From assembly GCA_964449215.1 (NCBI GenBank), contig CAYVAH010000001.1, positions 32,865 to 96,864 on the forward strand: a stretch of DNA of 64,000 nucleotides, written 5' to 3'. Position numbers and translations under genes: made by a program. The stretch's first letter is position 1. Each line of letters begins with the position of its first letter. Below the pieces are notes generated by a model. That model saw only the letters and a program-made list of their open reading frames with translations, was not told the DNA's origin and searched no databases. The DNA comes from Candidatus Undinarchaeota archaeon (lineage in GTDB: Archaea; SpSt-1190). This document shows, piece by piece, positions 1 to 59,050 of this stretch.

Positions 1-1
1 C

Positions 2-3000
2 ACCACCCTGAACATCACAGAGATAAGATATACCTGGAAATATGGTATGCTCTTCAATGAAAGTCAAAATGCATTCACCAGGCTGAAAATATACGAGTAT
101 GTTCCCCTGATGGAAAATGCCACACTCTACATAAATGGAAACAGCAGCAGGACAACAGGGGGCTGGGGAGAAAACTTCACCCATTCACTCTGGGTAAGGG
201 ATCGCTTCGGGAGGAATGTATCGGTGTATTTCTGGCACAGGATTGTGGGCAATGAATGGGTGCTCGTGGACAACAGCACCTGTGCCTCCTGCGGAAGCTG
301 GACCCAGATGAATTTCAGCTACAACTACCAGCCGGATGACATAAACACCTGGGAATTCAAGTTCAACGCCACGAACGATGACGGGAACAACAGCCTTGAA
401 GGTTTTGTATATGTTGTCGAGAGGGACGACGTCATCCTGAACTTAAACAAGCCGGAGAATTATGAAATTGTAAACAGGAGCGGATCATATACATTCTCCA
501 CGCGGATATATGACACAGATAATCAGACATACCCGGATGGAACAATAGGAAAAATCTTTGTGTCAATATTCGACCAGAAAAACTTTGAAGACTCACCACC
601 GCCGCTATCCGCATCGGATGGCTGGCTGAACCGCACCGTAACCAATGATGACTGGTGCTCAAATGAAGGATGGTACTATCTGGGGAACCATAGCTGGTAT
701 ACCGCCACCACAGGGGACCAGTACATAAAGGACAACTCCAGCGCCGTAAGGAATTTCACCCTGATGGGAACCCTCAGTAACACAATCACCGAGTTGATAG
801 GGGAAAACGTGAGCAAAGAATACAACTCAACTGTAATAATAGAAGGGAATGTAACAACTGATTGTGGCGTGACTGTCACTTCACCAACCGCGAAGTTTAA
901 CCTCACCAATGGCCAGTATTACTGGGAGTGCACGGGGACTCCTGTCGGCAATACCTACCAATGCAACTTCCCAACATCTTCCGCACCCTATGGGTGGTAT
1001 AACATAACAATGCTTTCAAATCAGAGCCTTTATTGGGATGGATTTGCACAGCAAGTTGCTTCATTTTATCTGGCGAGCGTGCCGGATGTGAATGCAAGTG
1101 TTGACAACCTCGAGGCTCCCTGGGGGAAGAGCCCGTTCAATTTCACGTCATATGTCACGGACCAGGACAATGATACGGTGACCATCAGGTTCTGGCTCAA
1201 GAAAGGTTCAGGATCCTGGGACAATGAACACACAGACACCAAATCAAACACCAGCAACTATCTCACATATTACGAACGCACATTCACCTGCCCCGGCCCA
1301 AATGACGTTGGCACGTGGTACTTCAAAGTCAACGCAACAGATACGTCCGGCTACTGGAACGAAACCTCAATTATTCAGTTCAACGTCACCAAAGAGCCAA
1401 TCTGGGTGATGCACTACCTCGGCGATGGAAAAACAATCAACAGGAGCGATAACGAACCGGATACCCAAACACGGCTGGCCGTCAGGCTTTATGACTACAT
1501 TCTCAACACCAACCGCACAGATCTACTGGATTCAAATGTGCTCTTCTGGGTAAATGGCACATCATTCGTATCAACTCTGAACAGCAGTGGTAAAAACTAC
1601 TACCACGACTACAAACCGACCTGCTCATTCCCGGCAGGAAATCTCAGCTGGAAAGCCAATTTCTCGGGGGAATCCTGCTATGCTGACAATTCGAGTGTTA
1701 ACTTTAATATTGTTGTGATGGGGACTCTCAATGGCAGCCTCATCGTGCCAGACGGCAATACCAACTATTCGCAAGGCGAACTCTTCAACATCACCCTCAA
1801 CTTGACAGACGACTGCAATCAGACCATTGGGGATGCAGATGTGTGGTTTAACCTCACAAATACAAGAACGGGTGACTGGTATAGGTGCCCATCAAGTGGC
1901 TACGCACAATTCAACGGCACTTACTATCTATGCGAAGTCAATACTTCCGAATTCAAGGGCGGCTGGTTTGACATATATGTGAATGCAACAAGGCAGTATC
2001 ACTGGTCATACATCAAAAACTATCAAAATATCTATTTCCAGATAACGCCCGTTACTTTGAGTTCGCCACAACACAGCGCTCCGGGTGATGGCGGGTGGGG
2101 TGAGAACCACAGCTTCTCTGTGATAGTGGACCACTATGCGGATGTCCAGGTGTGCCTACTGGAAGACCTCGGAAGTGGATGGGAAATAACAGAGTGCAAG
2201 TCAATCCCGCAACCAACCAACCAGCAGGTCTTCTTCTACAGGACATACGACTGTGGGCCCGCGAGCAGCTTCGTTTCATATAAATTCAATGCAAGTGAAC
2301 CGGGAGTGCCAAGCACGCTCTCAAACACAACATCACAGAACCATTTCATCCAGAAGGATGACGTCCAGATTGTATACATAAAGGGCAATGAAAGCACGGT
2401 CAACAGGAGCAGTGGATACACCCCCTTCATCCTCCTGATAAACGACACAGACAAAGGAGAACCCGCTCCGTATGTCCAGAGCTATGATTCCCCAAGGGTC
2501 AGGTTCTTCGTCCACAATGGAACAACTTACCTTGAGGATGGAAGCAACGTGACAAACTCATCAGGTTATGTGGAATACAGATTCAACCCGAGTTGCAGCT
2601 ATGAGAGAGGTAGGGCAACCTGGTACGGATCAACAACCCTTGATGCCTGTTACAAAGCCGAGAACTCAGGCACCTACAACGTCACAATCCTGGCGGACAT
2701 TGCACCGAACATAACCTATCCAAATGGCGAAACTTTCTACAGGCTGGCTTCTCTGGTGATAAACATAACAGTTGAATACAAAGACGAATGTGGATTGCAT
2801 TACCTGAATGCAAGTGCTAACTACACCCTGATAAGCAGAGGGTTCGGAACCCACTATAACTGCACAAGCATAGATGACTACGAAAATGGCACTCAAATCT
2901 GCCATTTCGATGCGTCGTTTGCGGATCAGGGATACTATGATGTGAACATCACTGCATGGGGTGTTGAATACCACAACAATGCCACTTATCGGAAGAACAA

Positions 3001-18000: not shown

Positions 18001-21000
18001 TGAAGGCTGGGGCAGAACCTTCACATACAGCGCGGACATCTACGACTCCCAGAAGGACAATGTAACCTGCAAACTCTTTGTCACCACAGACGGGGGATCG
18101 AACTGGGAATACAAAGGGGAACAGGTCATCTACTGGGGTAATGGAACCTGCGAAATTAACGTCACTGACTTCGACTGTTCTGACAGAGGGACTGACAACT
18201 ACTACCGCTTCCAGATAGATGATGGAACGGAAGGAAACCTCAGGAATACCACCGATATTTACGGGCCGAACATCACGGAGGACGATGTTGGTGTCTATTA
18301 TGCATACGGGAATGCCACAAATGTGAGCCGCAAGGGAACCAACTATACGAGCCTTTCATTTCTAGTCACGGATCTAGATAGAGGAAACATCACAGTGAGC
18401 GACGCTAACGGGACGTTCTGGATAACCCGAAATGGGGTAACATATGTCACACAACCTGTCGTCCAGACCAATTCGAGTGGATATGTGGTCTACCAGTTCA
18501 ACCCCGACTGTGACCCGCTGTATGAAACCATGGTCCAGAAATGGAAAGCAGGGGTTGTCGACGGCTGCTATGTGGACACCAACCTAACAGATACCTACGA
18601 ACTTACAGTGATGGGAGACCTCACCAACAATCTTGATTATATATACAAGAACAGCATACCCACAGCACCGCCAGTGAATCTGACAAAAGGCGAGGAGGAC
18701 CTGATAGCGGACATCCATGTGACGGACGATTGTGGACTCGACATAAGCTCGGCAAGCGTCAATATAAGCTGGATAAGCGAATATGGAAACAGGTACAATT
18801 GCACGGTGAGTGACAGCGGGAATGGCATATACAAGTGCAACATGCCAACCGACGCGATGAAGGCAAGGTGGTATGACATTGAAATAAATTCATCCAAGCA
18901 ACCCTATTATTATGACAGCCTGAACACCCTACAACAGAATGTGCTTTTCCTCGAGACCCGCCCGATAGTTACAAACCTCACGTGCCTCAACTGCCCGGGT
19001 GGGTGGGGCGAAACCTTCTATTTCGCCACCACACTCACCGACGAAGACCTTGACAACCTCACACTCAAGCTGTTTGTCCGCAAGCCAGGAACCGGCTTCT
19101 TCTACGAGATGAACTCAACAAACGTCACAGCTCCAATAATAAACAAGACCGTCGTGCTTTCAGTCCCGGATACCACCTTTGAATGCCCAACTCATCTTGG
19201 AACTGGAGAATTCCGCTTTGAGTCACAGGATGACAGAAAACTCACTCAGAGCAACACAACCAACTATACCGTGGAAAGGGACGACGTGAGATTCGAAGTC
19301 TCGGAAGGGGACGGAGACTTTGTGTGGAGGAACGGCACGGGAGCACTGAACCTCAGCCTTGTTGTGTGGGATGACGACAGAAACACCACAATATCTGGAA
19401 TACAGGGAACAGTATGGGTGACTGTGAACCAGAGCTCCTGGGACTCCGGCAAGGGTATTGGGACCAATGGTTCAGGATACCTTAACTATGAATTCATGAA
19501 TGAGCTCCCGCCAGGGGGGCAGAGATGTGACTATGAACTTGGACCACAGTGGTGGCGCGGGTGGGTGAATGACAGCTGCTACAAGGACACATACTCCCAA
19601 AACTACTCACTCACAATAAGGGCGGAACTCCTCCCAGTCATACATATCCCAGACGGCGAAGGTTATCTGCTCGGTGACCACATACTGGTGGCAGGAACCG
19701 TATCGGATGACTGCCCACCGCCTGTGGAAAATGCCACCGTGACCTACAAGCTCAAGAGGGGCAGCAACACATACACCTGCAGCCCAACAAACAGCTATAA
19801 CTGGACCGAGAATCTTGGGTGGTATAACTGCACCTGGGACGCCGGGTCGAGGGTGAAGGGCTGGTATGATATTGAAATGCAGACCAGCAAGGCATACTAT
19901 GCTGATAACTCGACAACCAAGGTCCAGGCATTCTTCCTTGGTGAAGCACCAACCCTGGAGAACCCGCAGGTGGATCACGACTATGGAGGCTGGGGCGAGG
20001 AGTATGTGTTCCAGGTAATATTCAGCGACCCCGATTACCACAGCAACAACGTCTCACTGTGGGTGAGCTCTGATAATGTGACATGGTGGCTAAAGGACTG
20101 GAAGAGTGCCATAGGCGTGGACACAACGGTCCAGTTCTTCGAAAGGTTCACCTGTGATGACATAAGCTCCTTCCCGGATGGTGTGAAATACTGGAAGGTT
20201 CGCGCTGTCGACCCGTTCAATTACAGTGATGAAACCCAGCCAAAGAACATAACATTCATAAGGGATGACGTGACCGTGACCCCGCAGGCAACAAGCAACT
20301 CGTCAATCAGGAGGATGGGAACTGGCGAAGCATACCTGGAATTCAGGATATATGACACCGACCTTGGGGTTTACCCGAATGAAAGTTCCACCAGAGTGTG
20401 GATAACCGAGAACTTCACGAATTACAGTGTGGTGAAGAGCTGCAACTCCACAAACGGGTATTGCAACGTCAGCTGGGACCCGACCTGCACTGCAGAAGCA
20501 GGTGTGCAAAACTGGGTGGCAGGAACCATGGACAAATGCTACCAGCAGGTCAACTCGACTCCAACGGACCTGGAGGTAATAGGCCAGCTCTACCTGCAGC
20601 CGAACCAGCCCGAGTATCACGAGATAGTGAACCGAAACACCACAACGGAGATGAACACCAGCGTAACGGATGAGTGTGGAAACTACGTGGAAAATGCAAC
20701 TGTCATCTGGTATAATGAGATATGGGACCAGATTGCCTCCGGCTATTACGCGAACTGGAGCATCGCCGCGGGCTACGAACTCGGATCGGAAACAATAAAC
20801 GTGAACGCCACCAAGACGCACTACGATGAGGGGACCAACTCCACAGTCGTGTATGTTTACGGGTGGAGCTCCATAACGGACATAAGTCCGGAAAGTGGAA
20901 GCGAGTTCGACGCAGGAAATTCCATCGTGGTTGACTGCACCGTGAAGGATGCCAACATAGGGAGCCCGATCCCGGGATACAGTGTTGATTTCTTCAAGAA

Positions 21001-24000
21001 CGGCACGTATCAAGACACAAAGGTCACACAACCAAATGGAGTGGCAACCTGGCAGTGGAACACCAACACTGAACCGCCCAGCTGGTTCAACATAAGCTGC
21101 CGCATAAATGACAGCTCCACCATGTTCTACAACACCTCGGTGGACACGGCATCGACAATGATCCGGATAAGGAGACCCTTGATATTCGAATACATAAGCA
21201 CTGTTCCGGGAACAATATACCGGAATGACTCTTATAACCCCCACGAAAGCAACATAAGTGTCAAGGTCGTAGAGGCACAGACAGGGCCAAGCGATGGTGC
21301 AAATGTAACATTCTACAACCAGACCTACTCACTCATAGACTACTGCATCACAAACTCTGACGGGAAGTGCTGGATACTTTACAATGCCACCAACACAATC
21401 ACCCCAGACATCTACAGGATATACCTGAATGCCACAAAGGATGGGACAGAGCCCTCTGTAACCAACTACACCTCCGTGAAGGTTATGGGTGTCCTGTATC
21501 TTAACATAACCAGCCCCGTGAACGGGAGTGAACACAACAAGGGAGAAACAATAGACCTGACAGTGGATGTGTGGGACGAAAACAACAACACCATAACTTC
21601 AGCAGATGCATACTGGTGGAATGAAACTGACATGGTGGGACAGGGGCTGTCAACCACTCTGAACCTGAAAACACAGCAGACGGGGTGGAGAAACATAAGC
21701 GTTGAGGTCAGAAAAGACTGCGCCAGCTATCCCGGAACGGAATGCTATGACAGGGCTTGGAACTATTCAATAATAAAAATAAACGGGCTCGCTGGGGTTA
21801 AGTGGGTATCCCCGCCAAGCTATGCGAACCCGCCGTGGTATGAGCTCACAATTTATGTCCCATACAACTTCACCTGCAATGTATATGATGAAATAACAGG
21901 CAATGGCATTTACAACTACACCACAAATGTCTGGTACCGATTCGGAACAGGACCATGGATCCACGCTGGAACCCTCCAGTCCAACATTGACGGGGACGTG
22001 AGCTACACATACGAGCCGAACCAAAAGGGAGACCTGACATTCAAGTGCAACATAACAGATGACCCGGACAAGCTGTATCAGGCAGGGGCGTCGGAAGCGA
22101 GTGCAACATTCAACGTTAAGGATAATGTGCTACCGACCATTGAGGATAATTACATCTACCCGACCTACGGGATTGAAGCTAACCTCAACCATACCACAAT
22201 CTACGCCACAATAAGTGACAATATAGGGATAAGTGCCACCTGGGTCTCTATAGAGCTGCCAAACGGGACATACTTCACGGACAGCATGGTAAGATACCCG
22301 GATGTCGTTGTTGACAAGAAAATCTCCGACCAGAACTCCACAGGATTCACCCACGTTGAGAATGCCAGTGAGCCTGGAGAAATGAAACATTTCAACGTGA
22401 CCATACACAACAATGAATCCTTCAATGTCTATTTCAACCTGACAATCAATGGAGAGCTTGTGTTCCCGAATGTGACAGCGAGCGCCGGAAGCAACACCAC
22501 CGTGGACGCCGTGGAGAATCACAGCTTTTCGCTTCCGGAGCCACTTGACGTGGAGGTCCAGTTCTTCAACGGAACAGGAGAACCAGTGAACGTGAGTCAT
22601 GTTGCATTCCTGGACTACCGGCTTAGCTCCTACAGATACAACTACAGTTATTACCCGGAAATCGGCGGAAACTACAATGTCACCATATATGCACAGGACC
22701 TGCCCCCTGAGAGCAATATACAGAGCAAGTTCACCGGCTCCTTCTATGTGTGGGGAACCACAAATGTAACAGCGAAAAACACGCCCAAGTTTGATGTTGC
22801 TGTGGGTATCACCCAGATCAATAGCTACACGTTCCAGCTGGTGGCAAACATAACCAACAATGGACCTGCAAACGCCTGGAATGTCAGCATGAACATAACG
22901 GACGATTCCTGGAACTACACGGAATACTGGAATGGCACCCACCAGCAAACGTATTTCTACTGCGGGAAGATTCCCGCAAACAAGTCGTGTGTAATCCCAA
23001 TAAACGTAACAATAAAGGAGAAAACCCCGCCTGTTGTCATCATTATAACCTCCAACGTCAGCTGGAGAAACCCGGACAAGAGCTGGAACTACACCTCGGA
23101 CACAACCGAGGTGGAAGTCGCCGACACGCCAGTAATAGAAATACTTGAAGATGAGCTGATCGCACAGGCACCACACGGTATGAGGAGCTATCTTGGCAAC
23201 CTAACAATAGCTTCCACGGGTAACTCGCCTGTGTTCGATCTGGAGGTCTTCCCGGTCGGTGGGAACCTGTTCTACGAGTGCCCCGAATGCAATTTAATAC
23301 TGTTCCCGGACTCCCAGGGGATAATGAATGCCGGAACGAATTACACGATGGACGTGGAACTCGACGTTCCGGGTGGCCAGACTCCCGGGGAATACTGGAC
23401 GGTAATCCGCGCAAACACTAGCAACGCCGCCTACGACGATGCATTATTGAATGTAACAATCCCGTGGAACAGTAGCTGGACCCGCTCGCCCTCTGGGCTC
23501 GGGACCATACTGGCACTGCTGAACACAAATGACACCATAGGGAATGTCACCATAAAGAACATAGGGAATGTCAGGGTGTATGTCACCACATACATAAGCG
23601 GTGCGGGAGCCACCCTCGTGACCGCGGAACCAAGGACCATGGGAATATCAAAGCTCACGTCGAGAAACCTCACAGTGAGTTACAGCATACCGCCGGATAT
23701 CTCGCAGGGACTTTTCCCCGTGCAACTAACACTAAGGGCAAAGGACGAAAAGGGAGACGATGCCGGACAGGAAACGGTCACATTCACTCTGAATGTCACG
23801 GACCTCCCACCAGCCATAGAAAACATCTATGTGGAACCACGGGACTTTGAAATATATCATGATGTTGTGAACATCTCCGCCACAATTACAGACAACTTTG
23901 AGGTCAGTCTGGCTTGGCTCAACATAACCCTTCCAAACGGCACATTTTACAGGAAATACATGAATAACACAGGGTCATTCTATTTCTCAGATTACAGCAC

Positions 24001-27000
24001 GAATATTACGGGCCTGTATATCCTCCGCATCTGTGCAAATGACAGCAGACAGCTGGAAGGATGCACAGCGCCCATAAACCTCACAGCCAACGCCAACACA
24101 AGCTTGAAGTTCCTGCCAAACAGGGAATTGGTAGTCGATAACGCCCGCTGGCTCGACCCCGTTAACTTTACACTCAATTACACCATAAAGAACGCCCGTT
24201 ACTCAAGAGCCTTCAACATAACTGCCAACTATTCAAGCCCCGATGGGTGGAACGTTTACCCACTGGGTGTGAACATCTCTCTGCTGTTGAAACAGGAGGA
24301 ATACAATGACACCCTGAACATTGAGGTACCGGCCGCCACCCTGCCAGGGAACTACAGCTTCAACGTCCTGCTCAACTGGACCAACCTCGATAACACCACC
24401 GGGTTGAACGACACGAACTTCACCATAGAAGTTCTTGAGAACCCACTCATAGAGTCCACTCCTGAAGAAATGAAGTTCACCATAATAAACAAGGAGTGGA
24501 AGAACAAGACGTTGTTTGTGGAGTCCGCAGGAAACGTTATTGTCAACGCTGTGAATGTTACTTGCTTCGGAGGAGTGGTATGCGAAAACATGAGCGTGAA
24601 CATCACCCCGAGCGTGCTTGGATCCATGCCACCGGGAACACTGGCACTTGTGGACATCAGAGTCCAGGTTCCGGAAATCTTTGAGACCGGACTGTATGAT
24701 GGCTACCTCTTCGTGAATGGCACGGAATCCAGCGACCTCACCCGCCTGTGGGTGAGGGTCCCACTCAACATTTCATGGGAGCACAACCCAACCAGCATTT
24801 ACAGGAAGCTTGTTCAAGGAGAAAGTGGAGAGTTCGGAGTTGTCACCATAAAGAACACAGGGAATGTTCTGACAAAACTGTGGCTCAATGTCACAGGGAA
24901 CATAACCGGTTACGTGTCCTTGAATGAAAGTTACCTCGAGATTCCAATCGAGGAGGAAAGATATGTGGCAATAAATTACAGCATGCCCCCAACATATGAC
25001 CAGCTCTATCTCAGCGGTGCCTTCATAAGTGAAAACAACAGCGCAAACATAACCCAACAGGCCACCTCGCTGGGGATGATGGTTCACCCGCTCTGGGTCA
25101 CCATAATTTCACCAACGCAGACCAGCCCAACAATAAATGTTAGCAACGGCACGACGATAAATGTAAACATAAGCGCCACCTATGGGTATTCGCTCATACA
25201 ATCCGGAATAACATTCAACGCATCACTCCACAGAAACGGAACATATTACGATGTGAATGAGAGCTACTACTACAATGACACGGATTTCCTCTGGCACCTG
25301 AACTTCACCGCACCGGACCTGAACCGGAGTACAGGCTACGACCTCGTGGTAACGGGCAACTATTCCCTCTATGATATTGCAAAGACGGACAGGGAAGACA
25401 AGGCAGTGATATACTATGATGTGATACCCCCGGTGGTTGACCTGAGACCGCCCGCGAAAGCGAGTGTCAACGGGACGGCCATGATAAGGCTGAACGCCAC
25501 AGATGCCGGTGGTGTGAAGGACGCCACCGCCACAATAACCTTCCCAGATGGGAACACTGTAAAGAGTTATGAAATGCATCTCGACTACATAGCTGGGGAC
25601 ACGTATGCGTTTTCACTGGCGTTCAACGAGACCTGGCAGGAAGGAATTTATGGGGTGTCCGCCAAAGCCTGTGACTATTCCGGGAACTGCGGATCCGACA
25701 CCGGTCAGTTCGCGACGTTCCAATACGCCAGGTTCTATGGCAGGACACTGGACCTCGAGAAGTCTGACGAGACTCCCATCAACCTGACATTCGACCTCTA
25801 TGAGGAAGGAACGATGAACCTGCTCCAGACAGTATATCCGAATGAAACTGGACATTACAACGAAACCATAGATGTGAGAACCTATGACATTGAAGCAGGC
25901 TTTTCGAATATGTCCTGCAAGTTCTACGGCGTTCCAATATTCACAGACGTTTATAACCCTGTCCAGATGGGCCGCATAAGTCCCAGCTTGATCGGGAAAG
26001 GCTCGCTGGTCGGGATGGAACTCGTCGAAAACCTGAGCTTCAGTTCCGCAAAAATAAAGTTCAGCTATGCGGGATATGAAGGAATAGATACCAGCAATCT
26101 GGCAGTATATACCTGCGAGGACTGGGTGAGGTTCAGTGGGTGTGCAAACAACAGCTGGGTCAGGAGCAACAGCACTGTGGTCGAACCCGGCACGGAAGAA
26201 GCCTACGTAATTGTAAGCGACCTTTCGGAAGCCTATGCCCTCGCAGAGTATGTTTGCGGGAACGATGTGTGCGAGACGCCCTATGGAGAAACGACTGCTG
26301 TGTGCCCGCAGGACTGCCCGGCAGGAGGGGCAGGAGCAGGGGGAGCAGCAGCAGGGGGTGGAGCCGGTGGGGGAGCAGCGGGAGGAGCAGCCGTCGCACC
26401 GGCTCCGACACCTACCATCCCGGCAGAAAAGTTCAAACCGGTACCTGTGGAGTTCAAGGCCCCTGTGATAGACATCACGATATACCCGGGTGAGTCAAAG
26501 GTCTTTGGAGTCGAAGTAACCAACAACATGGAAAATTCCACAACCGGGAGGACATATGCAGAGGGTCCTGTATGGACACTGCTGGAATTCCAGTTCGAAA
26601 ACTTCACCGTCGAGAACAAGTCAACAAGGACAGTGCAGATAAATGTTGTCCCAACTGCCAACGTGACTCCGGGTGTATATACAGGGGACATTGTCCTTGA
26701 AGTCGCGGGCATAAAGCACCGCATACCTGCTTCAGTAGCTGTGGAGATACTGGAAGAACCACTGCTCGACGTGAAGGTCAAAACACTCACAAAGAGGGTG
26801 GCACCCGGAGAGCCGTTGAAGTTTGAGGTCACCCTGATAAACATGGGTGGGACGGAGGAAATAGAGGACATAGTGGTCAACTACACGGTAATGACCCTCG
26901 AAGGGGAGGAAACCACAATAACAATAGCGGGAGAAACTGTAGCCGTTGAAAACCTGAACAGGTATGTCAGGGAGGTTACAATACCTGAAGATGTGCCTGA

Positions 27001-28387: not shown

Positions 28388-29085
28388 AATGTCTGGTGGC
28401 GATGATGCTCCTGGCCGGAACATTCGCCCTCAGCTTCAGTTATGATGGCGAAGTTTTCGTGACCCCCGGTGAGGAAAGAGTGGTGAAGATATACCTGCAG
28501 AGCGAAAATGAAAGTGGAGTTTACCCTGTCACCTGCTCCTCAAGTATTTCTGTGAAATGTCCGAACTACGTGAGGATAAACCCGGGATCGGAAACCTTCG
28601 TTGCCCTGGAGCTCACAGCGGGAATCGGGCGGCATCTGGTGAATGTCTCGATAGGAGGGAGACCAATACGGTTTGTCGTTGAGTCTTCGAACCACACAGA
28701 TGTGTTTTACAATATGCTCCAGAGATACAACAACAGTTTTTTCAGGCTCGAAGCAAGGTATGGAAAGAGTGAACTCCTTGACCTGGGGAAGCTCCTGGTT
28801 TCGGAGGGGTTCTCCCACTACAAAAAAGGGGAATATCCTGCAGTCAAAGGAATTCTGGAAAATCTCGAGACGCTGCTCGGTGAATATTATGCCTCCATTG
28901 GAACCGTGGAGGAACAGCCAGCCAGACTTGAGCTGTCTTTCATTCCCCTCCTCCTAGTTGGAGGAATGCTCGGGGCTTACACCATTGCAACAAGGAAGCC
29001 GAAGAGAAACTCCGGGGCAGGGGAACTGAGCAAACTTATGGAAAAGGAGTTTGGAGGTGGAGTTGTTGGCAAAAAAGAAGACTAA
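28384..29085 (+). CDS. Small secreted/membrane-anchored protein (N-terminal signal peptide, C-terminal TM anchor), translationally coupled to the giant gene
   Basis: ATGA start/stop overlap with the giant ORF. N-terminus MKCLVAMMLLAGTFALS is signal-peptide-like. C-terminal LSFIPLLLVGGMLGAYTIATRKPKR is a TM plus stop-transfer. No recognisable family. Confidence 0.6.
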   Translation: MKCLVAMMLLAGTFALSFSYDGEVFVTPGEERVVKIYLQSENESGVYPVTCSSSISVKCPNYVRINPGSETFVALELTAGIGRHLVNVSIGGRPIRFVVESSNHTDVFYNMLQRYNNSFFRLEARYGKSELLDLGKLLVSEGFSHYKKGEYPAVKGILENLETLLGEYYASIGTVEEQPARLELSFIPLLLVGGMLGAYTIATRKPKRNSGAGELSKLMEKEFGGGVVGKKED

Positions 29086-30229
29086 GCCGAAGAAAGTCAA
29101 AAAGGAGGAAGAAAAGCCCGCGGAAGAGGCCCCAGAAGAAGAAGGCGGGGAACCGGCAGCAGAGGAAGGAGAAAGAACAATAGGAGATATTGTTGAGGAG
29201 GAGGGGCTTGTTTCCGAACCTGAAAGGGAGTCAATGCTCAAGCAGCAGGGGACACCTGAGCTCTCTGAAGTTCTGATGCGCATTGACAGAATTGACGGGA
29301 AGCTGGAGCTCTTCAAAGGGATGCTCGATTCCTTCAACGAAAGACTCATAGAACTCAATGAACGCCTCGGGGACACCCGCAGGATGGTCTTCGACAGGGA
29401 AAAATGGGCCTCAAAGCTCGAAACGGAGTTCGAGAAAGTGGCAGGCATTGTGAAGGAACTTGACCCGGAGAAAATCGTAATGAGGTTCGAGAAGTTCAAG
29501 ACAAGCATTGAAAAACAGAATGCAACCCTGGAAAAGCTCAACGACCTCCTGAAGAACCTATCGGAGCGGATGAAGATTGCGGAGGGGAAACTCGAGAACG
29601 TTAAGAGCCTCGAAAACGTGATGAAGGCCGGAAAGACCGTTGAGGAGAAATTGAAGAAGATTCAGGAAGCGAAGACATATACGGACAAAATATCCGCGAA
29701 GATAGAGGCGATGTTCCTCGAAACGAATGAAAGGGTCGCCATGATGAAGGAAAACCTTGATAAGATTGAAAAGCATGAGTCGATGCTGGGCGACCTGCTG
29801 AAGGAAATTGAATCACTGAAGTTCAAGATAGATGAAGAGCTCGTGAAAAAGAGGGAGGTTGAGGAACTTATTGAGTCCGCAAAAGACGTAATCATAGAAG
29901 AAATCGTTGGGATAAACCCAGTTGCTTTTGACAACCTTCGAAGGAGGGTCGCGATATTGGAGAACAAGGGAAAAAGCACCAGAGAGCTCGAAGAGGAGCT
30001 GAAGAAATACCAGACACTTATGGATCAGGTTGAAAGGGATTTCCAGATGGGGCGGATAAAGGACGAAGCCAGGAACGAGCTGAAGGCCAGCACGGAGAAA
30101 AAGATAGAAGAAATCCGGCTGGTCCTTGAGAGCAGAAAGGGTCCAAAAAAGGTTGAGGGGAAGAAAGCAAAGGGAAAGGAAACCAAGTTGAAGGAAAAAC
30201 TTCTGAGCATGGGAAAGAAATCTACTTGA
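29051..30229 (+). CDS. K/E-rich cytoplasmic coiled-coil protein (start uncertain: TTG/GTG at 29051-29066; first ATG at 29234)
   Basis: Long ORF with heptad-like K/E/L-rich sequence throughout and no TM. Overlaps the previous gene across an A-run (ggcaaaaaagaag). SD-like GGAGGTGG at 29053-29060. Confidence 0.55.
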   Translation: MEVELLAKKKTKPKKVKKEEEKPAEEAPEEEGGEPAAEEGERTIGDIVEEEGLVSEPERESMLKQQGTPELSEVLMRIDRIDGKLELFKGMLDSFNERLIELNERLGDTRRMVFDREKWASKLETEFEKVAGIVKELDPEKIVMRFEKFKTSIEKQNATLEKLNDLLKNLSERMKIAEGKLENVKSLENVMKAGKTVEEKLKKIQEAKTYTDKISAKIEAMFLETNERVAMMKENLDKIEKHESMLGDLLKEIESLKFKIDEELVKKREVEELIESAKDVIIEEIVGINPVAFDNLRRRVAILENKGKSTRELEEELKKYQTLMDQVERDFQMGRIKDEARNELKASTEKKIEEIRLVLESRKGPKKVEGKKAKGKETKLKEKLLSMGKKST

Positions 30230-33200
30230 AAACCCTCTTCAGTTCCTCGAAGGTCTCGCGGGATATCAGCCCCTCTTCATATTGGCTCTTCAGTGTTTGA
30301 AGAACGTCAGATCCCCCTTCTGCTTCCCTTTTCTTCTTCACTATTTCCTCGAGCTTCTTCATCGCCCTCCTCTGCTCCCTCCCTTTCAGTATCTTGAACT
30401 TGTTTATGGCTATCACAATCAGGAGAATCAGAGCAAATATGGAAACGGCAATCACATACCAGTTCGGTGGAACCTCCGGGAGCGTGACTGTCGGCAGATA
30501 CCTCGGTTTTGAAATCTCCAGCCGGTATTTTATCTCCTCGATGGTGTTCTCCACATCAGATATCGTCTTGATTGCATCAACAGTCTGGTCCTTCTCGAGG
30601 TAGGTTTCAGCCACATCGAGCATTTCCCTGGATTTCCTGAGGAGGGAAAGAATCTTGGTAACATCACCCCCCCTCGCAGCAACCTTACCCGCCTGGTCCT
30701 CCAGATCCATAAGCTCCTCCCGGAGGGAAGCAATCCTCGCCCGGAGAGCCTCCTCCTGTGTCTTAAACACTATAACCTTGTAGAACTCCGAAACCTCCAC
30801 TTCACGGGAAATTATACGCATCTTGGTCACGTAGGTTCGGGCCGTGGCGTCCTCAGGGATCGTGAACTTCACGACAAGGTATCCACTTGACCCGGGAGAG
30901 AGGGATGCCACCTCCCTGACAACCTCGAACCAGTCCTTGTCTATGTCCTCAAAGAAAACTGTTATGTCGGAAAGGCCAACATCCCCTGTGTTCTTCACCT
31001 CGATGGTGAGATAACCCACCGAACCGCGGTTTATTATCATCTCATCCGGGAAGACGTTGGTTATTGTGAGCTCCATCACAGCAGCCTCAACCGGTGTTAT
31101 AATCTCAGGGGGGACCTCCTCCGGCGCAGCAGCTTCCACCACCCTGAAACCCCTCGAAACCTCAAGCGGGGGGTACACTGTCGAGTAGTTCAGAAGGACG
31201 TGGAGCGAGTAGCCCCCCGCTGACTGGTTGGAGTATATGGAAAGATTTGCAGTTAACGTGCGGTTGCCCCTGGCAGGAACGAATGTCGGCCTGTCATGGA
31301 CATAGGCATAAGTTCGATTCTGTGAATCCTCAATCCAGTATGAGAGAAGAACATCCTGGTCAACATCCCCGTAGTTCTCGAGCAGTATGGTGAAATTCAG
31401 GTCCTCACCCTGTGGCACCTCTGGGTCTATGCTGATTATATCAACGTCATAGGGTCCGCCAAAACTGACGCGGAAAGCCTTGAGCTTCCTCACCTGCCTC
31501 CCCCCTTGCTCAACTATAAGCTCCGCCAGATAGTATCCGGTGGTCGTTGGGAGGCTGTGCTTCGTCTGGTAGAGCCTGCTATTGTTCGTGACGTTGAAAA
31601 GCGAAAGCGAGCTGTTCGTGAAATAAAGATTCTCGGCCGAGTCATACACGTTCAGCGTGACTTCGTCCGGTTCCACCATAGGACCATCAGTATAGACGAG
31701 AGCGTAAAAGTGTGCCTGTATCGGCTGGCTTGAGTACCACACATATCCTACATCAAACTCAACATTATATTCCTCCCTGACGGAGAAGGAATACGTGGTG
31801 CTGTGATTAACTGTCTTGTTCGCCACCGGGTCCCGGTGCGAGGCATTCACAGTTATGGTGTAGTTGCCCAAGGGAGCATCATCGGGAATTGAAAATGTTG
31901 GTATCGGCAGCACCGTTCCATCGGACTGGAGCTCGTCGTGATATCGCAGGTATCCGAGCGAGTCGTTGAGCTTTAGAGAAACATTTGCAGGTATGGGAAT
32001 CCCGGACTCATCAGTGGTGTTTATGTATATGGATGCCGTTTCTCCCGTGTAGTATGTCCGGAAACCCGTTCCCACACTCGTGTGGAGTATTGGATAAACA
32101 TACAAGGTCAGGTTCTGACGGGAATAAAGCCCAAGGTTGTCTCTCGTCTCAACCTGCAAGGTGTAGTAACCGAACTCGTTGCTGTTCCCCCAGGTCCCGG
32201 GGTATGTGAGCTCGTAGTAGTAAGTCTCATTTGATTGATTCACGAGGTTCATGTCAGATGCCTGCACCGAGCCCCGGGGAAGAAACACAACGAGTCTGGT
32301 GAAGCTCAACCCCTGCCCGGATTTATCAGTGATATTCGCATAAACCGTTATGTCTTCAAGCTCCTGCGTAATATTCTTTGACAGTGTGGCATTTATCTCG
32401 GCAAGCTCTCTTGGTATCATACTCACGTTCAAATATCTCCAGGAGGGCTGTGCGACGCCAGCACTCACATTGTATGTGGCATTATAATAGTCCCTCGCGA
32501 CTCCGGTGAGATTCCAGAGTATGACAAAGAGGTGCACGCCCTGCGCTGGAACGGTGAAGTTGGTCTCATTGGTGTATGTATAGTTGGCGCTTTCCGGGGA
32601 AACGGTGAAGTTCAGTTCCACGTTACCCGTGTTGTTGACCATAACGTCGCACATCTTCCCCTCATCGAAAGCTACCTCGGTTGTGCAGTTCTCCGGGTGG
32701 AGCTCCCAGGTCCGGGAAACGGGAACTGTAATATTCAGGTACACAAAATCGTAACCATCATCGGAGCTTGTGTAATTGGCAGTTCCGGTATAATTGCCGG
32801 GGGAATAGCCGGGGGAGACATTCACATTCGCAGTCACATCAATCACAGAGCCAACAGGAATGAAGTCTATCTCGGGATAAAACGTTATGTTGAAATCATC
32901 CAGCCCAAGCACCGTTACACTCACCCCATTCACCTGGTCATTACCGGTGTTCCTGACGGTGAAGCCACCGATATCCGTGCTCTGACCGTGTGGCGCCGAA
33001 CCGGCCACATACGCTTCGTCTATCTGAAACTCCTTGTTCGAAAGAACTTCCACAGTGATGTTCGTGGTGTTGTATGTCACCCCTATTCCGGGATTCGCCC
33101 AAGAAACATTGACAACAACAGTGTAGTTCCCGGGCGTGCTCCGCTTCACAGCAAGCTCAAATGTCCTGAAACAGAACCCACCCACCGGCACGTCACCGCA

Positions 33201-35903
33201 GTTATACCTGTTGCCAGAAACGTTCGTGAGCCAGTAGGCCTCCGGGAGCTCCAGGGTGATGTTTGTGTCGAGGGCCGGAGAAGACCCTATATTCGTCGTG
33301 TTCACAGAAACCGTGAAATTCTGAAATTTATACCACCTCATCCTGTCAGAGGTGAGGGCGGAGGGCGTGGCGTTCACGCTCATAAAAGTCTCTATTATGC
33401 TAACCTGGACAGGTATGGAATCCCAGACGCCATTCTCCGAGGACGCATTTAGAGTACCATCAAAGGTACCACGCTCATGGTCACTTGGCATATACACCCA
33501 GACCTCCACAGAAGCATTTTCACCCTGGAAAATCAAGGAAACATTTGAAGGGGTGAAATTGAAAGTCATGGTGGGTATTCCTGTGACGTTGAACGTCACA
33601 TTCTGCAACTCGAAGTTTCCTTCGGATAAGACGGTTATATTCCCCATATAGTTCCACTCGCCTGGAGCGGCAGTTATGGAAATGTTCTCCTCGGCAATCC
33701 TGAGTGAGGGATTCGGGTCCACGGAAATGTTGAACGTGGTGTTGTAGCTGTCGGTGGTGTTGTCGGAGTTCAACCAGTCCACTGTGGCATTCACAAGATA
33801 AAACCCTGGAGTTTCATTTTCGGGGACCCACACATCAAAAAACCTGATGGAAGATTGAAAGAGGTCTATCGTACCAAGCTGTTCGAAGCTCGTGTTCACC
33901 CACCAATTCCCGGGGAGATTCAGGGTAATGTTGGTCGCGTAGGCGGTGCCGTTCCCGAGGTTGGTCACATTCGCCACCATCGTGAAGTTCTGTCCTTCAG
34001 AAAGGGTCACGTTATCTATGGACTCCCTGCCGCCTGTGAAATTCAGACCGACAGTCACATCCGTCACATACGTCACTGAGGTAAAGGTGTCCTGCGCCGT
34101 CCCTGTGTTGCCAAGTCTCGTAGCATTACAGACAAGTGTGAACACACCATAGTATGAGGGGGACACGAATTCTATCAGGTATGTGCCGTTCCCATAGTCA
34201 GTTACATTTGGGTTCGCATCTGTGGAGTCATACACACAGCTTATATTCGCCCCGGGGATGTATGTGTCATTACGGTAGTTGGTAACCTCCATGGTCGCAT
34301 TTATGGTGCGATTAACGAACCCGTAGTCATTTGAAATATTGAGTGACGCAGTGTAGGTATCAAACACAAAAAAGCTGGCGGTGGTCGTGTTCAGGAGCAC
34401 GTTCTTCTGGTCCCAGGCATAAGCCGTGATATTCCACTGACCTGTCGAGTTCGACTCGTTCAGGATGAAATAATTTGTGTAGAGGTCGTCCCCTGCCTGC
34501 GAATCCCCATGACTCCCGTCGTCATAAAGGGTCAGCGACAGGTCGCCCCCCTCAGACACAATGGTCGCATTCACGAGGGTTATCAGCCCGGAATCCACGG
34601 TGGCATTAACAAAAACTGTTACATTCTCCCCGCGGTTATAGCTTGAGTGTTCCGTTGAAGCGTTCAGGAACACCTCCCATTTTTCCGAAAGAGTCTTTGA
34701 CGTTTCCTCCCTGAAAAGCAACCTGTTCCTGAGGTTCCTGACTTGGGCGTCAGTCGGAGATCCCTTGATCGCGGAAGGGCTGTTGAAATGAAGTGCTGTC
34801 ACCTCATATAGGGTCTCATCTGGCTGAACCGTCACATTGGAAAGTTCAATACCCCCCCTCCCCCAGCTGTTGTTCCTGTTGACGGAAGCATAGGGACCCG
34901 AATCCTCAACATTTATGATACCAACGTGGAAGTTCGCGAACTCCGCGGCAAACCAGAACCACGAGGCAGGCTCGGAGGCATTCCCGATTATTATGCTGTT
35001 CGTCCCTGCCCTTTTAACATCAAAGAGCAAAGCACCAGCAGGAGTGGAATTGCGGGTTATGTTATAGTCCGCCGTGTTCTTGTAAATTTGCTCCACCTTT
35101 ATCCACTGGCTCTGATTGTAGAATATGTAACGCTTCACAATTTCACCTTCTGTCTGGTTTGTGGAGTTCCATACAACTTCCTTCCCTCTTTGCTCCACCA
35201 CGAGCCTTGCAGGACCCTGATAGAGAACTGTCATGTTGTTGCGAAGGTCGAACGTAAAGTTGTGTGTGTCATTGGAATACTGCATATACTCAATGGGGTT
35301 CTCCCCCTCAGACGGAGGAGACCAGAACTCATTCTCAGCATAGTCCTTTATTCTATAGATGCCTGAAACGTTGGCGCCCCGGGAGGTGTCTATCCAGTAT
35401 TCAAGACCTTTTGTGGTTCCGGAATCCTCAATGGTCACGTTGACCTGCAGCTCCTCGCCATCCCAGCTGTACGGGATGACAGTGTAGTTGATGGCGGGCT
35501 TGCTGTCGGTGTCATAGTAGAGACAAAAGACCCTCAGCTCGTTGGCCGCGAGGGTACCGTTCATTATGAACGCCAGCGTTCCGTGAAAATTCATCGAGGC
35601 GTTGAACCCCTGACCCTCATCGAACTGGCTCGGCAGCTCGAACATGGCACTCCCGCTGGAGGGATCCTGCTCTATGAGGCGGAGTGAAGTGGCGTTGATA
35701 GTCCCGCTTCCCCCAGAAGCATTCAGCTCAGCAGTAAGGTTCAGCGGGAACTCTATTGGCCAGTCTTCGCGGGAATACTTGGAAGCATTTACTTCGATAC
35801 ACACACGGTAATCCCAGCTGGAATCCCACCACTCCAGCTTCGCAAAAGCCGGGAGAACCAAAAGAAGCAGCAGCAGGGCTACCCGAAACCTCACGGAATT
35901 CAA
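30222..35903 (-). CDS. Large surface (S-layer-like) glycoprotein, 1,893 aa, with N-terminal signal peptide, C-terminal coiled-coil stalk, TM anchor and short cytoplasmic tail (start codon TTG at 35903 or GTG at 35894)
   Basis: N-terminus (M)NSVRFRVALLLLLLVLPAFA is signal-peptide-like. Very high NxS/T density. Coiled-coil segment at aa ~1720-1810. TM is WYVIAVSIFALILLIVIAINKF. TATA-like GGCTTAAATTAAAAGCC at 35909-35925. Convergent with the giant-gene operon, with 3' ends overlapping by 8 nt. Confidence 0.75.
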   Translation of the reverse strand: MNSVRFRVALLLLLLVLPAFAKLEWWDSSWDYRVCIEVNASKYSREDWPIEFPLNLTAELNASGGSGTINATSLRLIEQDPSSGSAMFELPSQFDEGQGFNASMNFHGTLAFIMNGTLAANELRVFCLYYDTDSKPAINYTVIPYSWDGEELQVNVTIEDSGTTKGLEYWIDTSRGANVSGIYRIKDYAENEFWSPPSEGENPIEYMQYSNDTHNFTFDLRNNMTVLYQGPARLVVEQRGKEVVWNSTNQTEGEIVKRYIFYNQSQWIKVEQIYKNTADYNITRNSTPAGALLFDVKRAGTNSIIIGNASEPASWFWFAAEFANFHVGIINVEDSGPYASVNRNNSWGRGGIELSNVTVQPDETLYEVTALHFNSPSAIKGSPTDAQVRNLRNRLLFREETSKTLSEKWEVFLNASTEHSSYNRGENVTVFVNATVDSGLITLVNATIVSEGGDLSLTLYDDGSHGDSQAGDDLYTNYFILNESNSTGQWNITAYAWDQKNVLLNTTTASFFVFDTYTASLNISNDYGFVNRTINATMEVTNYRNDTYIPGANISCVYDSTDANPNVTDYGNGTYLIEFVSPSYYGVFTLVCNATRLGNTGTAQDTFTSVTYVTDVTVGLNFTGGRESIDNVTLSEGQNFTMVANVTNLGNGTAYATNITLNLPGNWWVNTSFEQLGTIDLFQSSIRFFDVWVPENETPGFYLVNATVDWLNSDNTTDSYNTTFNISVDPNPSLRIAEENISITAAPGEWNYMGNITVLSEGNFELQNVTFNVTGIPTMTFNFTPSNVSLIFQGENASVEVWVYMPSDHERGTFDGTLNASSENGVWDSIPVQVSIIETFMSVNATPSALTSDRMRWYKFQNFTVSVNTTNIGSSPALDTNITLELPEAYWLTNVSGNRYNCGDVPVGGFCFRTFELAVKRSTPGNYTVVVNVSWANPGIGVTYNTTNITVEVLSNKEFQIDEAYVAGSAPHGQSTDIGGFTVRNTGNDQVNGVSVTVLGLDDFNITFYPEIDFIPVGSVIDVTANVNVSPGYSPGNYTGTANYTSSDDGYDFVYLNITVPVSRTWELHPENCTTEVAFDEGKMCDVMVNNTGNVELNFTVSPESANYTYTNETNFTVPAQGVHLFVILWNLTGVARDYYNATYNVSAGVAQPSWRYLNVSMIPRELAEINATLSKNITQELEDITVYANITDKSGQGLSFTRLVVFLPRGSVQASDMNLVNQSNETYYYELTYPGTWGNSNEFGYYTLQVETRDNLGLYSRQNLTLYVYPILHTSVGTGFRTYYTGETASIYINTTDESGIPIPANVSLKLNDSLGYLRYHDELQSDGTVLPIPTFSIPDDAPLGNYTITVNASHRDPVANKTVNHSTTYSFSVREEYNVEFDVGYVWYSSQPIQAHFYALVYTDGPMVEPDEVTLNVYDSAENLYFTNSSLSLFNVTNNSRLYQTKHSLPTTTGYYLAELIVEQGGRQVRKLKAFRVSFGGPYDVDIISIDPEVPQGEDLNFTILLENYGDVDQDVLLSYWIEDSQNRTYAYVHDRPTFVPARGNRTLTANLSIYSNQSAGGYSLHVLLNYSTVYPPLEVSRGFRVVEAAAPEEVPPEIITPVEAAVMELTITNVFPDEMIINRGSVGYLTIEVKNTGDVGLSDITVFFEDIDKDWFEVVREVASLSPGSSGYLVVKFTIPEDATARTYVTKMRIISREVEVSEFYKVIVFKTQEEALRARIASLREELMDLEDQAGKVAARGGDVTKILSLLRKSREMLDVAETYLEKDQTVDAIKTISDVENTIEEIKYRLEISKPRYLPTVTLPEVPPNWYVIAVSIFALILLIVIAINKFKILKGREQRRAMKKLEEIVKKKREAEGGSDVLQTLKSQYEEGLISRETFEELKRVFK

Positions 35904-59020: not shown

Positions 59021-59050
59021 CCCATATAAATTTTTCATTCTGGGCGTTTC

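Follow-up and report, generated by a model that had tools for sequence, protein, structure and literature searches.

Gene content of the window

The stretch of DNA analysed here, referred to as the window, comprises 64,000 nucleotides of a contig from a Candidatus Undinarchaeota archaeon (CAYVAH010000001.1). Two large surface-protein genes on opposite strands dominate its first part, with two small genes lying between them, and a further secreted protein is encoded downstream (Table 1).

Table 1. Features of the window, with positions counted from its first nucleotide
Feature	Position	Strand	Remark
Giant surface-protein gene	2..28387	+	first ATG at 47; at least 9,446 aa in the window
21 tandem repeats of ~325 aa each (aa 1–6933)	47..20845	+	repeat HMM
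Non-repeat part of the giant's ectodomain (aa 6934–9023)	20846..27115	+	Pfam MG2, NPCBM_assoc/NEW3, Big_7, Nis1
Single predicted transmembrane helix of the giant (aa 9024–9042)	27116..27172	+	Kyte-Doolittle
Cytoplasmic C-terminal domain of the giant, 404 aa	27173..28384	+	HerA/FtsK/VirB4-type P-loop ATPase, then coiled-coil Lys-rich tail
233-aa protein, N-terminal signal-like segment and C-terminal membrane helix	28384..29085	+	conserved module member
392-aa Lys/Glu-rich soluble protein	29051..30229	+	conserved module partner
1,893-aa protein ORF	30222..35903	-	102 sequons
Ectodomain of the 1,893-aa protein (aa 22–1575, beta-sandwich), preceded by a signal peptide (aa 3–21)	31179..35903	-	all 102 sequons
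Remainder of the 1,893-aa protein: stalk, membrane helix, short cytoplasmic tail	30225..31178	-	
Membrane helix of the 1,893-aa protein (aa 1815–1833)	30405..30461	-	hydropathy score 2.96
988-aa secreted protein, N-terminal hydrophobic segment	52649..55615	-	no Pfam match

An earlier reading made from the sequence alone had placed the start of the giant gene at position 47. This position is merely the first ATG of the ORF (47..28387) and, since the reading frame remains open back to base 2 at the 5' edge, the gene extends upstream of the window. The N-terminus and the signal peptide region are located beyond that edge, and the syntenic orthologue in GCA_007050885.1 was found to be 13,237 aa long. 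The part of the protein within the window has a mass of 1.06 MDa and a pI of 4.4.

The 21 full repeats (E 1e-49 to 1e-119 against the repeat HMM) have a mean pairwise identity of 27%, and each consists of three Ig/macroglobulin-like beta-sandwich domains bearing 11–23 sequons. An AF2 model of repeat 12 is all-beta with a pLDDT of 90.7, and its top Foldseek matches are the MG domains of complement C5/C3. The transmembrane helix is the sole segment in the 9,446 residues with a Kyte-Doolittle value above 1.6 (1.84 in a 19-aa window). The cytoplasmic domain that follows matches DUF87/HerA in Pfam (1.6e-9) as well as ResIII and T4SS-DNA_transf, its closest PDB entry is HerA 4d2i (E=3e-9) and IcmO/DotL was also matched. 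A total of 677 homologues of this domain were found, mostly in DPANN archaea, where the Nanohaloarchaeota proteins are 52–53% identical to it.

The 1,893-aa protein matches NPCBM_assoc/NEW3 (2.4e-16) and MG2 in Pfam, which gave no homology to known S-layer families. Its beta-sandwich ectodomain is joined to the membrane helix by a helical stalk (aa 1576–1814), and a 340-aa module protein at the Aenigmatarchaeota locus L083 shows homology to the last 280 aa of the 1,893-aa protein (E=5e-23). We found 53 full-length orthologue clusters with identities of 26–73%, conserved along the full length of the protein; database entries (P0126) start it three residues later.

Sequon density and topology

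Within its 9,446 aa the giant carries 480 N-glycosylation sequons (N[^P][ST]), a density of 5.08 per 100 aa; the figure for the 1,893-aa protein is 5.39 per 100 aa, and the two proteins together bear about 580 motifs. Composition-preserving shuffles gave 140.9±9.8 sequons for the giant (z=34.8; the observed count was reached in 0 of 1000) and 25.9±4.4 for the 1,893-aa protein (z=17.1), which corresponds to a 3.4–3.9-fold excess. The background is provided by twelve soluble cytoplasmic proteins of the window, where 11 sequons were found in 4,879 aa (0.23 per 100 aa) and 8% of the Asn residues lie inside sequons as compared with 60–65% in the two large proteins. The extreme density that the sequence-only reading had claimed for both proteins was therefore borne out, also under the shuffling that it had proposed as a check, and the examples it quoted (NATLYINGNSSRTT, NFTH, NVSVYF and NSTCAS) were all found within the first 80 aa. 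Its estimate of one sequon every 10–15 residues agrees with the median spacings (15 aa in the giant, 12 aa in the 1,893-aa protein) but is too dense for the means of 18.7 and 15.2 aa.

The distribution of the sequons follows the predicted topology. Both large proteins have one C-terminal membrane anchor preceded by a string of Ig-like beta-sandwich domains, and all sequons are located N-terminal of the anchor and confined to that string. In the non-repeat part of the giant the density is unchanged to aa ~8500 and becomes sparser close to the membrane, with the last sequon at aa 8945 and the largest gaps at aa 8708–8830 and 8945–9020. In the 1,893-aa protein the sequons end at aa 1572, leaving the stalk free of them. 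No sequon was observed beyond either membrane helix, the 404-aa cytoplasmic domain of the giant with its ATPase included (0 sequons, 7 Asn), and past the helix sequons are practically missing from the 53 orthologue clusters of the 1,893-aa protein as well. Among the other genes of the window, the 988-aa secreted protein is sequon-enriched (10 observed, 3.2 expected), while 4 sequons were observed against 1.1 expected in the 233-aa protein and 2 against 1.0 in the 392-aa protein.

Proline is largely absent from the positions around the acceptor residue, with 2 cases at the middle position (NP[ST]) and 6 at position +3, where 19.4 were expected for each. Furthermore, threonine is favoured over serine (Thr/Ser 1.54 in sequons, 1.31 in the composition). 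The hydrophobic fraction at positions -1, +1 and +3 is 0.53–0.56 against a background of 0.38. A total of 211 of the 360 sequons that could be placed on a reference repeat (about 57%) fall in predicted beta-strands, where the side chains of Asn and Ser/Thr face outward, with hydrophobic residues at -1, +1 and +3.

Positional conservation of the sequons

Sequons were observed to be better conserved than their surroundings when orthologues were compared. In the closest orthologue (75.8% identity), 106 of 115 aligned sequons are retained (92%) as compared with 68% of the non-sequon Asn residues (Fisher p=1.5e-5). Across 48 orthologues of the 1,893-aa protein a sequon occupies the same column in 48% of pairs whereas residue identity is 38%; sequon conservation exceeds residue identity in all identity bins, and 35 columns hold a sequon in at least 75% of the sequences.

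The internal repeats of the giant behave differently. Sequons share a column in 22% of comparisons whereas overall identity is 27%, and the idea that they are better conserved than other residues among these repeats was not supported. Support for site conservation is taken from the orthologue comparisons only. About a dozen columns of the repeat alignment contain a sequon in at least 7 of the 21 repeats, with about 6–7 hot positions per repeat, and 61 columns are singletons; the hot columns reappear in the repeats of other organisms (r=0.71). Much of the inter-repeat signal in the giant is one of density and not of fixed sites. The sequence-only reading had proposed positional conservation of the sites, many of them at equivalent positions in successive repeats; such conservation is seen between orthologues and is only partial between the repeats. 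As an example, its NFT after GGWGE is literally present at 2 of 10 GGWGE sites, although 6 of the 21 repeats have a sequon in that column. Similarly, its NCTW occurs 4 times, and 11 of the 21 repeats have a sequon in the corresponding N-C-S/T column; its NTSG occurs 3 times.

Comparison with known surface proteins

The SlaA/SlaB proteins of Sulfolobus acidocaldarius resemble the proteins described here in being archaeal surface proteins with beta-sandwich domains and dense N-glycosylation sites, the latter predicted in our case. SlaA has 31 sequons, of which 27 carry confirmed glycans (PMC10903991, PMC2948927); its density is ~2.2 per 100 aa, and the 5.1–5.4 per 100 aa observed here is about 2.4 times that value. 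SlaB and the 1,893-aa protein share an arrangement of beta-sandwiches, helical stalk and C-terminal membrane helix, but the SlaB stalk bears sequons and the stalk of the 1,893-aa protein does not. No sequence similarity to SlaA/SlaB was detected and Pfam gives only the generic NEW3 and MG2 matches. SlaA/SlaB form an S-layer lattice, whereas the 1,893-aa protein is known solely as a predicted architecture.

A close parallel in layout is found with the SPEARE and other giant anchored proteins of Nanohaloarchaeota, such as NAR1_1133 and SVXNc_0300 (9,409 aa) (PMC6642349, PMC10266531). Like these, the giant of the window has a mostly extracytoplasmic ectodomain of tandem Ig-like domains, a single membrane helix near the C-terminus and a conserved ResIII/VirB4/HerA-like ATPase domain followed by a coiled coil (PMC6642349, PMC10266531). 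It differs in the repeat family of its ectodomain (the 325-aa triple-Ig unit) and in belonging to a non-halophilic lineage. Hamm et al. 2019 described SPEARE proteins as having at least one laminin-G domain together with serine-protease and toxin-like regions, and the use of protease and endonuclease domains as defining features was disputed later (PMC10266531). Pfam matched no laminin-G, protease or toxin domain (E<=0.01) within the 9,446 residues of the giant that lie in the window, and we therefore describe the predicted protein as SPEARE-like, sharing topology and cytoplasmic module, and not as a strict SPEARE member. Sequon density of SPEARE proteins is not discussed in PMC6642349 or PMC10266531; in our analysis of three Nanohaloarchaeota homologues of the ATPase protein, sequon enrichment was weak in two (z=1.3–1.4) and modest in the third (z=3.2).

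Another DPANN comparison is provided by the surface proteins of Nanobdella aerobiophila, which also combine several Ig-like folds with a C-terminal membrane helix. They carry 14–52 predicted N-glycosylation sites, with 36–52 in proteins of 908–1,320 aa (10.1101/2023.10.27.564410), a density of up to about 4 per 100 aa. These proteins are far shorter than those of the window and have neither a fused ATPase nor the 325-aa repeat, and their sites are software predictions without shuffling or orthologue-conservation tests.

Homologues and the conserved gene module

High sequon density was found to be maintained among homologues. A density of 3–8 sequons per 100 aa is kept in around 200 homologues, whole proteins or fragments; among 147 repeat-bearing representatives the median is 5.8 per 100 aa and the median ratio to shuffled sequences 2.98 (minimum 2.10). 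Orthologues of the 1,893-aa protein range over 3.0–7.2 and the module giants of Aenigmatarchaeota and Woesearchaeota over 4.3–8.8 per 100 aa. An exhaustive HMM search with the 325-aa repeat gave 976 matches, and the 5 fragments returned by a word-indexed profile search therefore reflect a limit of sensitivity. The closest syntenic contig carries the label Bathyarchaeota, and the best matches of the thermosome carry the labels Nanobdellati, Altiarchaeota and Undinarchaeota.

The giant belongs to a conserved DPANN module consisting of the ATPase-fused SPEARE-like fibre and the 233-aa, 392-aa and 1,893-aa proteins, which is kept in Aenigmatarchaeota and Woesearchaeota. In L090 the 233-aa protein has a syntenic counterpart of 234 aa (54% identity) and the 392-aa protein a counterpart of 430 aa (69% identity), and the 392-aa protein is also related to a 529-aa gene product encoded downstream of a stand-alone ATPase in Aenigmatarchaeota L083 (23% identity, E=4e-16). 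Stand-alone membrane HerA-like ATPases of this kind (~725 aa) share 43% identity with the giant over its last 660 aa; with one 726-aa DPANN protein the match covers aa ~8783–9418, the helix and ATPase included. They adjoin upstream genes for sequon-dense giants of 3,200 aa in Aenigmatarchaeota L083 and 15,808 aa in Woesearchaeota L089, and they also neighbour homologues of the 392-aa and 1,893-aa proteins. Giant ectodomain and ATPase are separate genes in these genomes, whereas the window, like P0182, P0196 and P0200, has both in one reading frame.

Origin of the sequon excess

The register specificity, proline exclusion and threonine preference fit the rules of an oligosaccharyltransferase. 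Together with the topology and the orthologue conservation these sequence features support the heavy N-glycosylation proposed by the sequence-only reading, and the sequons very probably represent selected acceptor sites for AglB-type N-glycosylation on the outward-facing parts of two membrane-anchored giants. The same reading spoke of an envelope, which overreaches as the giant is not an established S-layer protein but a fibre of SPEARE-like type that carries an ATPase on the cytoplasmic side.

The excess could instead be a structural trait of beta-sandwich domains, arising for example from polar-hydrophobic-polar strand alternation or Asn/Thr capping, with no relation to glycosylation. The hydrophobic alternation at the sequons, the large share of them in predicted strands and the richness of the domains in Asn, Ser and Thr are all in keeping with such a trait, but it should enrich related spacings alike, and N-x-S/T (3.37-fold) is the only register to be enriched. 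S/T-x-N, D-x-S/T, S/T-x-S/T and Q-x-S/T occur at 1.08, 0.95, 0.91 and 0.90 of expectation, and depletion was observed for N-x-N (0.37) and for N-x-D, N-x-G, N-x-A and N-x-V, the values of the five lying at 0.26–0.42. Beta-strand alternation was rejected as an artefact on these controls. The proline and threonine preferences also match the enzyme and not the fold, and sequon positions turn over among the repeats while density is held constant, which is unexpected for a structural motif. We consider this explanation very unlikely. An even less probable alternative, which we practically discount, is an artefact of composition or the multiplication of a few ancestral sequons by repeat amplification. 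The giant does consist largely of tandem repeats with a set of shared sequon columns; however, shuffles that keep the composition still yield z=35, the repeats are too divergent and have too many singleton columns for simple copying, and the non-repeat region at aa 7000–8500 is equally dense. Enrichment also extends to proteins outside the giant, namely the non-repetitive 1,893-aa protein with its orthologue clusters and the 988-aa protein, and both forms of this artefact were refuted by the shuffles, the non-repeat regions and the other proteins.

It is also conceivable, though unlikely, that the sequons are potential glycosites of which most stay unoccupied in this organism, either because it has no AglB or lipid-linked glycan pathway of its own or because it depends on a host. 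DPANN archaea have reduced genomes and reduced biosynthesis, and glycan supply is therefore uncertain for this archaeon. Within the 64-kb window we found no oligosaccharyltransferase or glycosyltransferase gene: no ORF of at least 150 aa has a Pfam match to the STT3 domain, no WWDYG-coding motif is present and there is no glycosyltransferase cluster. Contigs reached via the DUF373 gene identify the 3' end of the window as an Lhr-like helicase and not as AglB; a 100-aa ORF at 63010–63309 corresponds to no recorded gene. On the other hand, the retention of 92% of sites at 76% identity argues for ongoing purifying selection, as does the density upheld family-wide over distant DPANN lineages. Furthermore, the genome of Nanobdella aerobiophila, a cultivated DPANN archaeon, has aglBDE (10.1101/2023.10.27.564410).

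Proposed glycosylation and role of the fibres

Under the favoured reading, that of selected acceptor sites, both proteins would be exported by Sec, after which a membrane AglB would transfer lipid-linked glycans to most of the sequon Asn residues. The load predicted on this basis is about 500 glycans for the giant and about 100 for the 1,893-aa protein. Such a glycan sheath would let a very long and thin fibre stay soluble and stiff and withstand proteases and heat, and it may help in the recognition of the host cell. The giant would then act as a SPEARE-like host-contact fibre linked across the membrane to a cytoplasmic HerA/VirB4-like ATPase.

It is already established that surface proteins of archaea can be heavily N-glycosylated. 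The present finding therefore overturns nothing, and the two giants would be an extreme case of a known phenomenon. What stands out is the scale and the clean measurement, with at least 480 candidate sites in one polypeptide and 60% of its Asn residues in sequons. Sequon density provides a marker of the exposed face of DPANN host-contact machinery that can be read from sequence, and the conserved sequons offer a target set for glycoproteomics or mutagenesis. Of greater use than the number of sequons may be the gene context of the module.

We suggest more tentatively, as a plausible rather than a probable extension, that high sequon density with a fixed core of glycosites is a conserved and selected trait of the whole class of DPANN giant surface proteins, by which we mean SPEARE-like fibres of the 325-aa triple-Ig repeat together with the co-encoded ~1,900-aa protein. 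If this is true, these ultra-small archaea would carry filaments that reach out over hundreds of nanometres in a sheath of ~500 or more glycans per molecule and that are coupled to a HerA/VirB4-like motor in the cytoplasm. Such a coat would contribute to the working of the host-contact apparatus or to its evasion of host proteases and viruses, and it would be a large and unappreciated biosynthetic cost for reduced genomes. The data suggest that symbionts with such genomes either pay heavily for their supply of glycans or depend on a host for it.

Sequon density and specificity

Both large surface proteins are exceptionally rich in N-x-S/T sequons, as the sequence-only reading had proposed from example motifs that were all located in the sequence. 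The giant protein was found to contain 480 N[^P][S/T] sequons (5.08 per 100 aa) against 140.9±9.8 in composition-preserving shuffles (z=34.8), and the 1,893-aa protein contains 102 against 25.9±4.4 (z=17.1), and of the Asn residues in these proteins 60% and 65%, respectively, belong to sequons. The background of the window, taken from 12 soluble cytoplasmic proteins, is 11 sequons in 4,879 aa (0.23 per 100 aa; 8% of Asn), and the observation of extreme density is confirmed. A spacing of one sequon every 10–15 residues describes the medians (15 in the giant protein and 12 in the 1,893-aa protein) but not the means, which are 18.7 and 15.2. Two secreted proteins of 988 aa (10 sequons vs 3.2 expected) and 233 aa (4 vs 1.1) are also enriched. 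The 988-aa protein adjoins a 360-aa secreted/membrane protein and neither has a Pfam match.

High density is also seen among homologues. The 53 orthologue clusters of the 1,893-aa protein (26–73% identity) have 3.0–7.2 sequons per 100 aa, with a ratio to shuffle of 2.6–4.6. An exhaustive search with the repeat profile retrieved 976 representative proteins, of which 351 reach E<=1e-30, and the best 147 of the 976 matches (248,119 residues in total) have a median of 5.8 per 100 aa (2.95–8.30) and a median ratio of 2.98 (minimum 2.10).

In the ectodomain, N-x-S/T is enriched 3.37-fold and is the only enriched register among those compared. The values for S/T-x-N (1.08), D-x-S/T (0.95), Q-x-S/T (0.90) and S/T-x-S/T (0.91) lie close to expectation. 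Depletion, to 0.26–0.42, is seen for N-x-N, N-x-D, N-x-G, N-x-A and N-x-V, as if Asn were consumed by sequons. Proline is avoided both at x (2 observed vs 19.4 expected) and at +3 (6 vs 19.4), and the Thr/Ser ratio in sequons is 1.54 vs 1.31 from composition. Avoidance of proline and preference for threonine are known properties of STT3/AglB-type oligosaccharyltransferases.

Repeat fold and positional conservation of sequons

A profile built from GWG-anchored segments revealed 21 consecutive repeats of ~325 aa in the giant protein, with a mean identity of 27%. The AlphaFold2 model computed from the alignment of the 21 repeats (pLDDT 90.7) has three beta-sandwich domains per repeat, and its top Foldseek matches are macroglobulin domains of complement C5 and C3. 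The other 2,000 ectodomain residues match MG2, NEW3 and Big_7 of Pfam. Each repeat has an invariant Trp, a near-invariant GGWGE motif and two invariant Cys residues (C209 and C273 in repeat 12), a pair that suggests the disulfide of an extracellular Ig-like domain. The hydrophobic fraction around sequons alternates (0.55, 0.56 and 0.53 at -1, +1 and +3 vs a background of 0.38) and, of 360 sequons with a position on the reference repeat, 211 (57%) lie in predicted strands; many sequons therefore sit on the outward face of beta-strands, which explains how such a density fits a folded domain.

Equivalent glycosites in successive repeats, another claim of the sequence-only reading, were observed only in part. 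Repeats of the giant protein have 783 column-sharing sequon pairs vs 185±13 by random placement, and about 6–7 hot columns hold a sequon in 9–13 of the 21 repeats, but a sequon is matched in the same column in just 22% of pairs (39% within ±2 columns), below the overall identity of 27%, and 61 sequon columns are singletons. The hot columns reappear in the homologous repeats of other organisms (r=0.71, 317 columns).

Orthologues give a clear positional signal. The giant protein and its syntenic orthologue in locus L090, aligned over 2,601 residues (75.8% identity), share 106 of 115 sequons (92%), whereas 68% of non-sequon Asn residues are kept (Fisher p=1.5e-5). Among 48 aligned sequences of the 1,893-aa family, sequon conservation exceeds residue identity in every identity bin (41 vs 32, 50 vs 39, 71 vs 56 and 87 vs 71%). 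Sequons occur in at least 75% of the 48 sequences at 35 columns, where 34 of the 102 sequons of the window protein are found.

Topology

Features of the locus and of the two large proteins
Feature	Window position	Strand	Residues (aa)	Remark
Giant protein ORF	47..28387	+	9,446	
21 repeats	47-20845		1–6933	
Giant juxtamembrane ectodomain	26170-27115		8708-9020	sequon-free stretches of 122, 75 and 73 aa, the longest
Giant hydrophobic helix			9024–9042	single
1,893-aa protein ORF	30222..35903	-	1,893	convergent with giant ORF
Signal-like segment			N-terminus	1,893-aa protein
Sequon-bearing part			up to 1572	1,893-aa protein
Helical stalk			between sequon-bearing part and membrane helix	1,893-aa protein; 0 sequons
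Membrane helix			1815–1833	1,893-aa protein
Short cytoplasmic tail			after membrane helix	1,893-aa protein
DPANN-conserved module	26400-35903			
988-aa and 360-aa proteins	52649-56684	-		
Archaeal histone-fold gene	~59050-59260	+	69	equivalent position; annotated in related contigs
DUF373 membrane-protein gene	59257–60267			
Stacked ORFs	62348–63948	-		probably spurious
Lhr-like DEAD-box helicase gene	62174-64000	+	757 or more in locus L084	runs off 3' edge

The last sequon of the giant protein is at aa 8945 and none occurs in the 404 residues past the helix. This tail is a HerA/DUF87-type ATPase (Pfam 1.6e-9; ResIII and T4SS-DNA_transf also score) with HerA 4d2i as the closest solved structure. 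Across the 53 orthologue clusters, almost no sequons are found past the membrane helix of the 1,893-aa protein. Set against the membrane helices, sequons are thus restricted to the predicted extracytoplasmic, beta-rich parts of both proteins, and the sequence statistics show selection of N-x-S/T on these predicted exposed parts. The juxtamembrane ectodomain, homologous to the ectodomain of a stand-alone ATPase protein, could serve as a glycan-free interaction or assembly surface.

Locus and source organism

The giant frame is open from window base 2 (TTLNITEIRYTWKYGM...) and position 47 is merely the first ATG; the gene therefore extends upstream past the 5' edge, with the N-terminus and signal peptide outside the window. 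Its orthologue in the closest syntenic relative (GCA_007050885.1, contig SMYQ01000001.1) has 13,237 aa. Two small genes separate the two large ORFs. Related contigs carry an annotated histone-fold gene directly before the DUF373 gene and overlapping it, and the minus-strand stacked ORFs are probably spurious because of the helicase gene at the 3' edge.

Archaeal housekeeping neighbours (CysRS, PheRS alpha and beta, thermosome, NIF3 and a UbiA-type prenyltransferase) are present, and the MAGs with the best thermosome matches (76–82% identity) carry the labels Nanobdellati, 'Altiarchaeota DPANNHV' and Undinarchaeota, which indicates a DPANN archaeon. Public labels of the nearest relatives (loci L003, L004, L021 and L090) conflict between Altiarchaeota, Nanobdellati, Undinarchaeota and Bathyarchaeota, and some are probably wrong. 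As a rough estimate, cytoplasmic composition (4,487 residues; IVYWREL fraction 0.424, (E+K)/(Q+H) 4.4) suggests a moderate thermophile growing at roughly 60 °C (proxy about 62 °C).

A conserved module resembling SPEARE

Over its C-terminal 660 aa, the giant protein has 43% identity to a stand-alone ~725-aa protein that is common in DPANN (677 matches). This stand-alone protein combines a signal peptide and a 300-aa ectodomain with a membrane helix and a HerA-like ATPase. In loci of Aenigmatarchaeota (L083, L087) and Woesearchaeota (L089), its gene comes after a giant sequon-dense gene (giants of 3,200 aa and 15,808 aa; 4.3–8.8 sequons per 100 aa) and is followed by homologues of the window 392-aa protein and of the 1,893-aa C-terminus. 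This shared order places the giant and 1,893-aa proteins in one conserved module, which also occurs in L090. The module comprises the giant protein, a membrane-anchored HerA/VirB4-like ATPase, a 390–700-aa Lys/Glu-rich protein and a coiled-coil protein that carries a signal peptide and a membrane helix. The window version fuses giant and ATPase in one ORF and encodes the last protein, enlarged to 1,893 aa, on the opposite strand; a ParA-like ATPase comes next in the Aenigmatarchaeota loci.

With its Ig-repeat ectodomain and membrane helix, followed by a ResIII/VirB4/HerA-like ATPase and a coiled coil, the giant protein has the layout of the Nanohaloarchaeota SPEARE proteins (PMC6642349). This architecture has been re-analysed for the 9,409-aa SVXNc_0300 (PMC10266531), and neither paper treats sequon density. 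Since Pfam found no laminin-G, protease or toxin domains in the in-window giant protein, we regard it as SPEARE-like and not as a strict member.

Implications for N-glycosylation

With corrections, the reading of the predicted sites as N-glycosylation sites is supported. After export, AglB would transfer lipid-linked glycans to most sequons, and the resulting dense sheath would shield a filament of at least ~85 Ig domains and keep it soluble. Glycans occupy 27 of 31 sequons in S. acidocaldarius SlaA and thermophilic archaea generally have more glycosites (PMC10903991). A search for Pfam STT3 and the WWDYG motif found no AglB gene within the 64-kb window; one cultivated DPANN archaeon encodes aglBDE (10.1101/2023.10.27.564410). 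The phenomenon is known; the two proteins represent an extreme, well-quantified case of it, encoded in the SPEARE-like module of a DPANN archaeon that is not halophilic.
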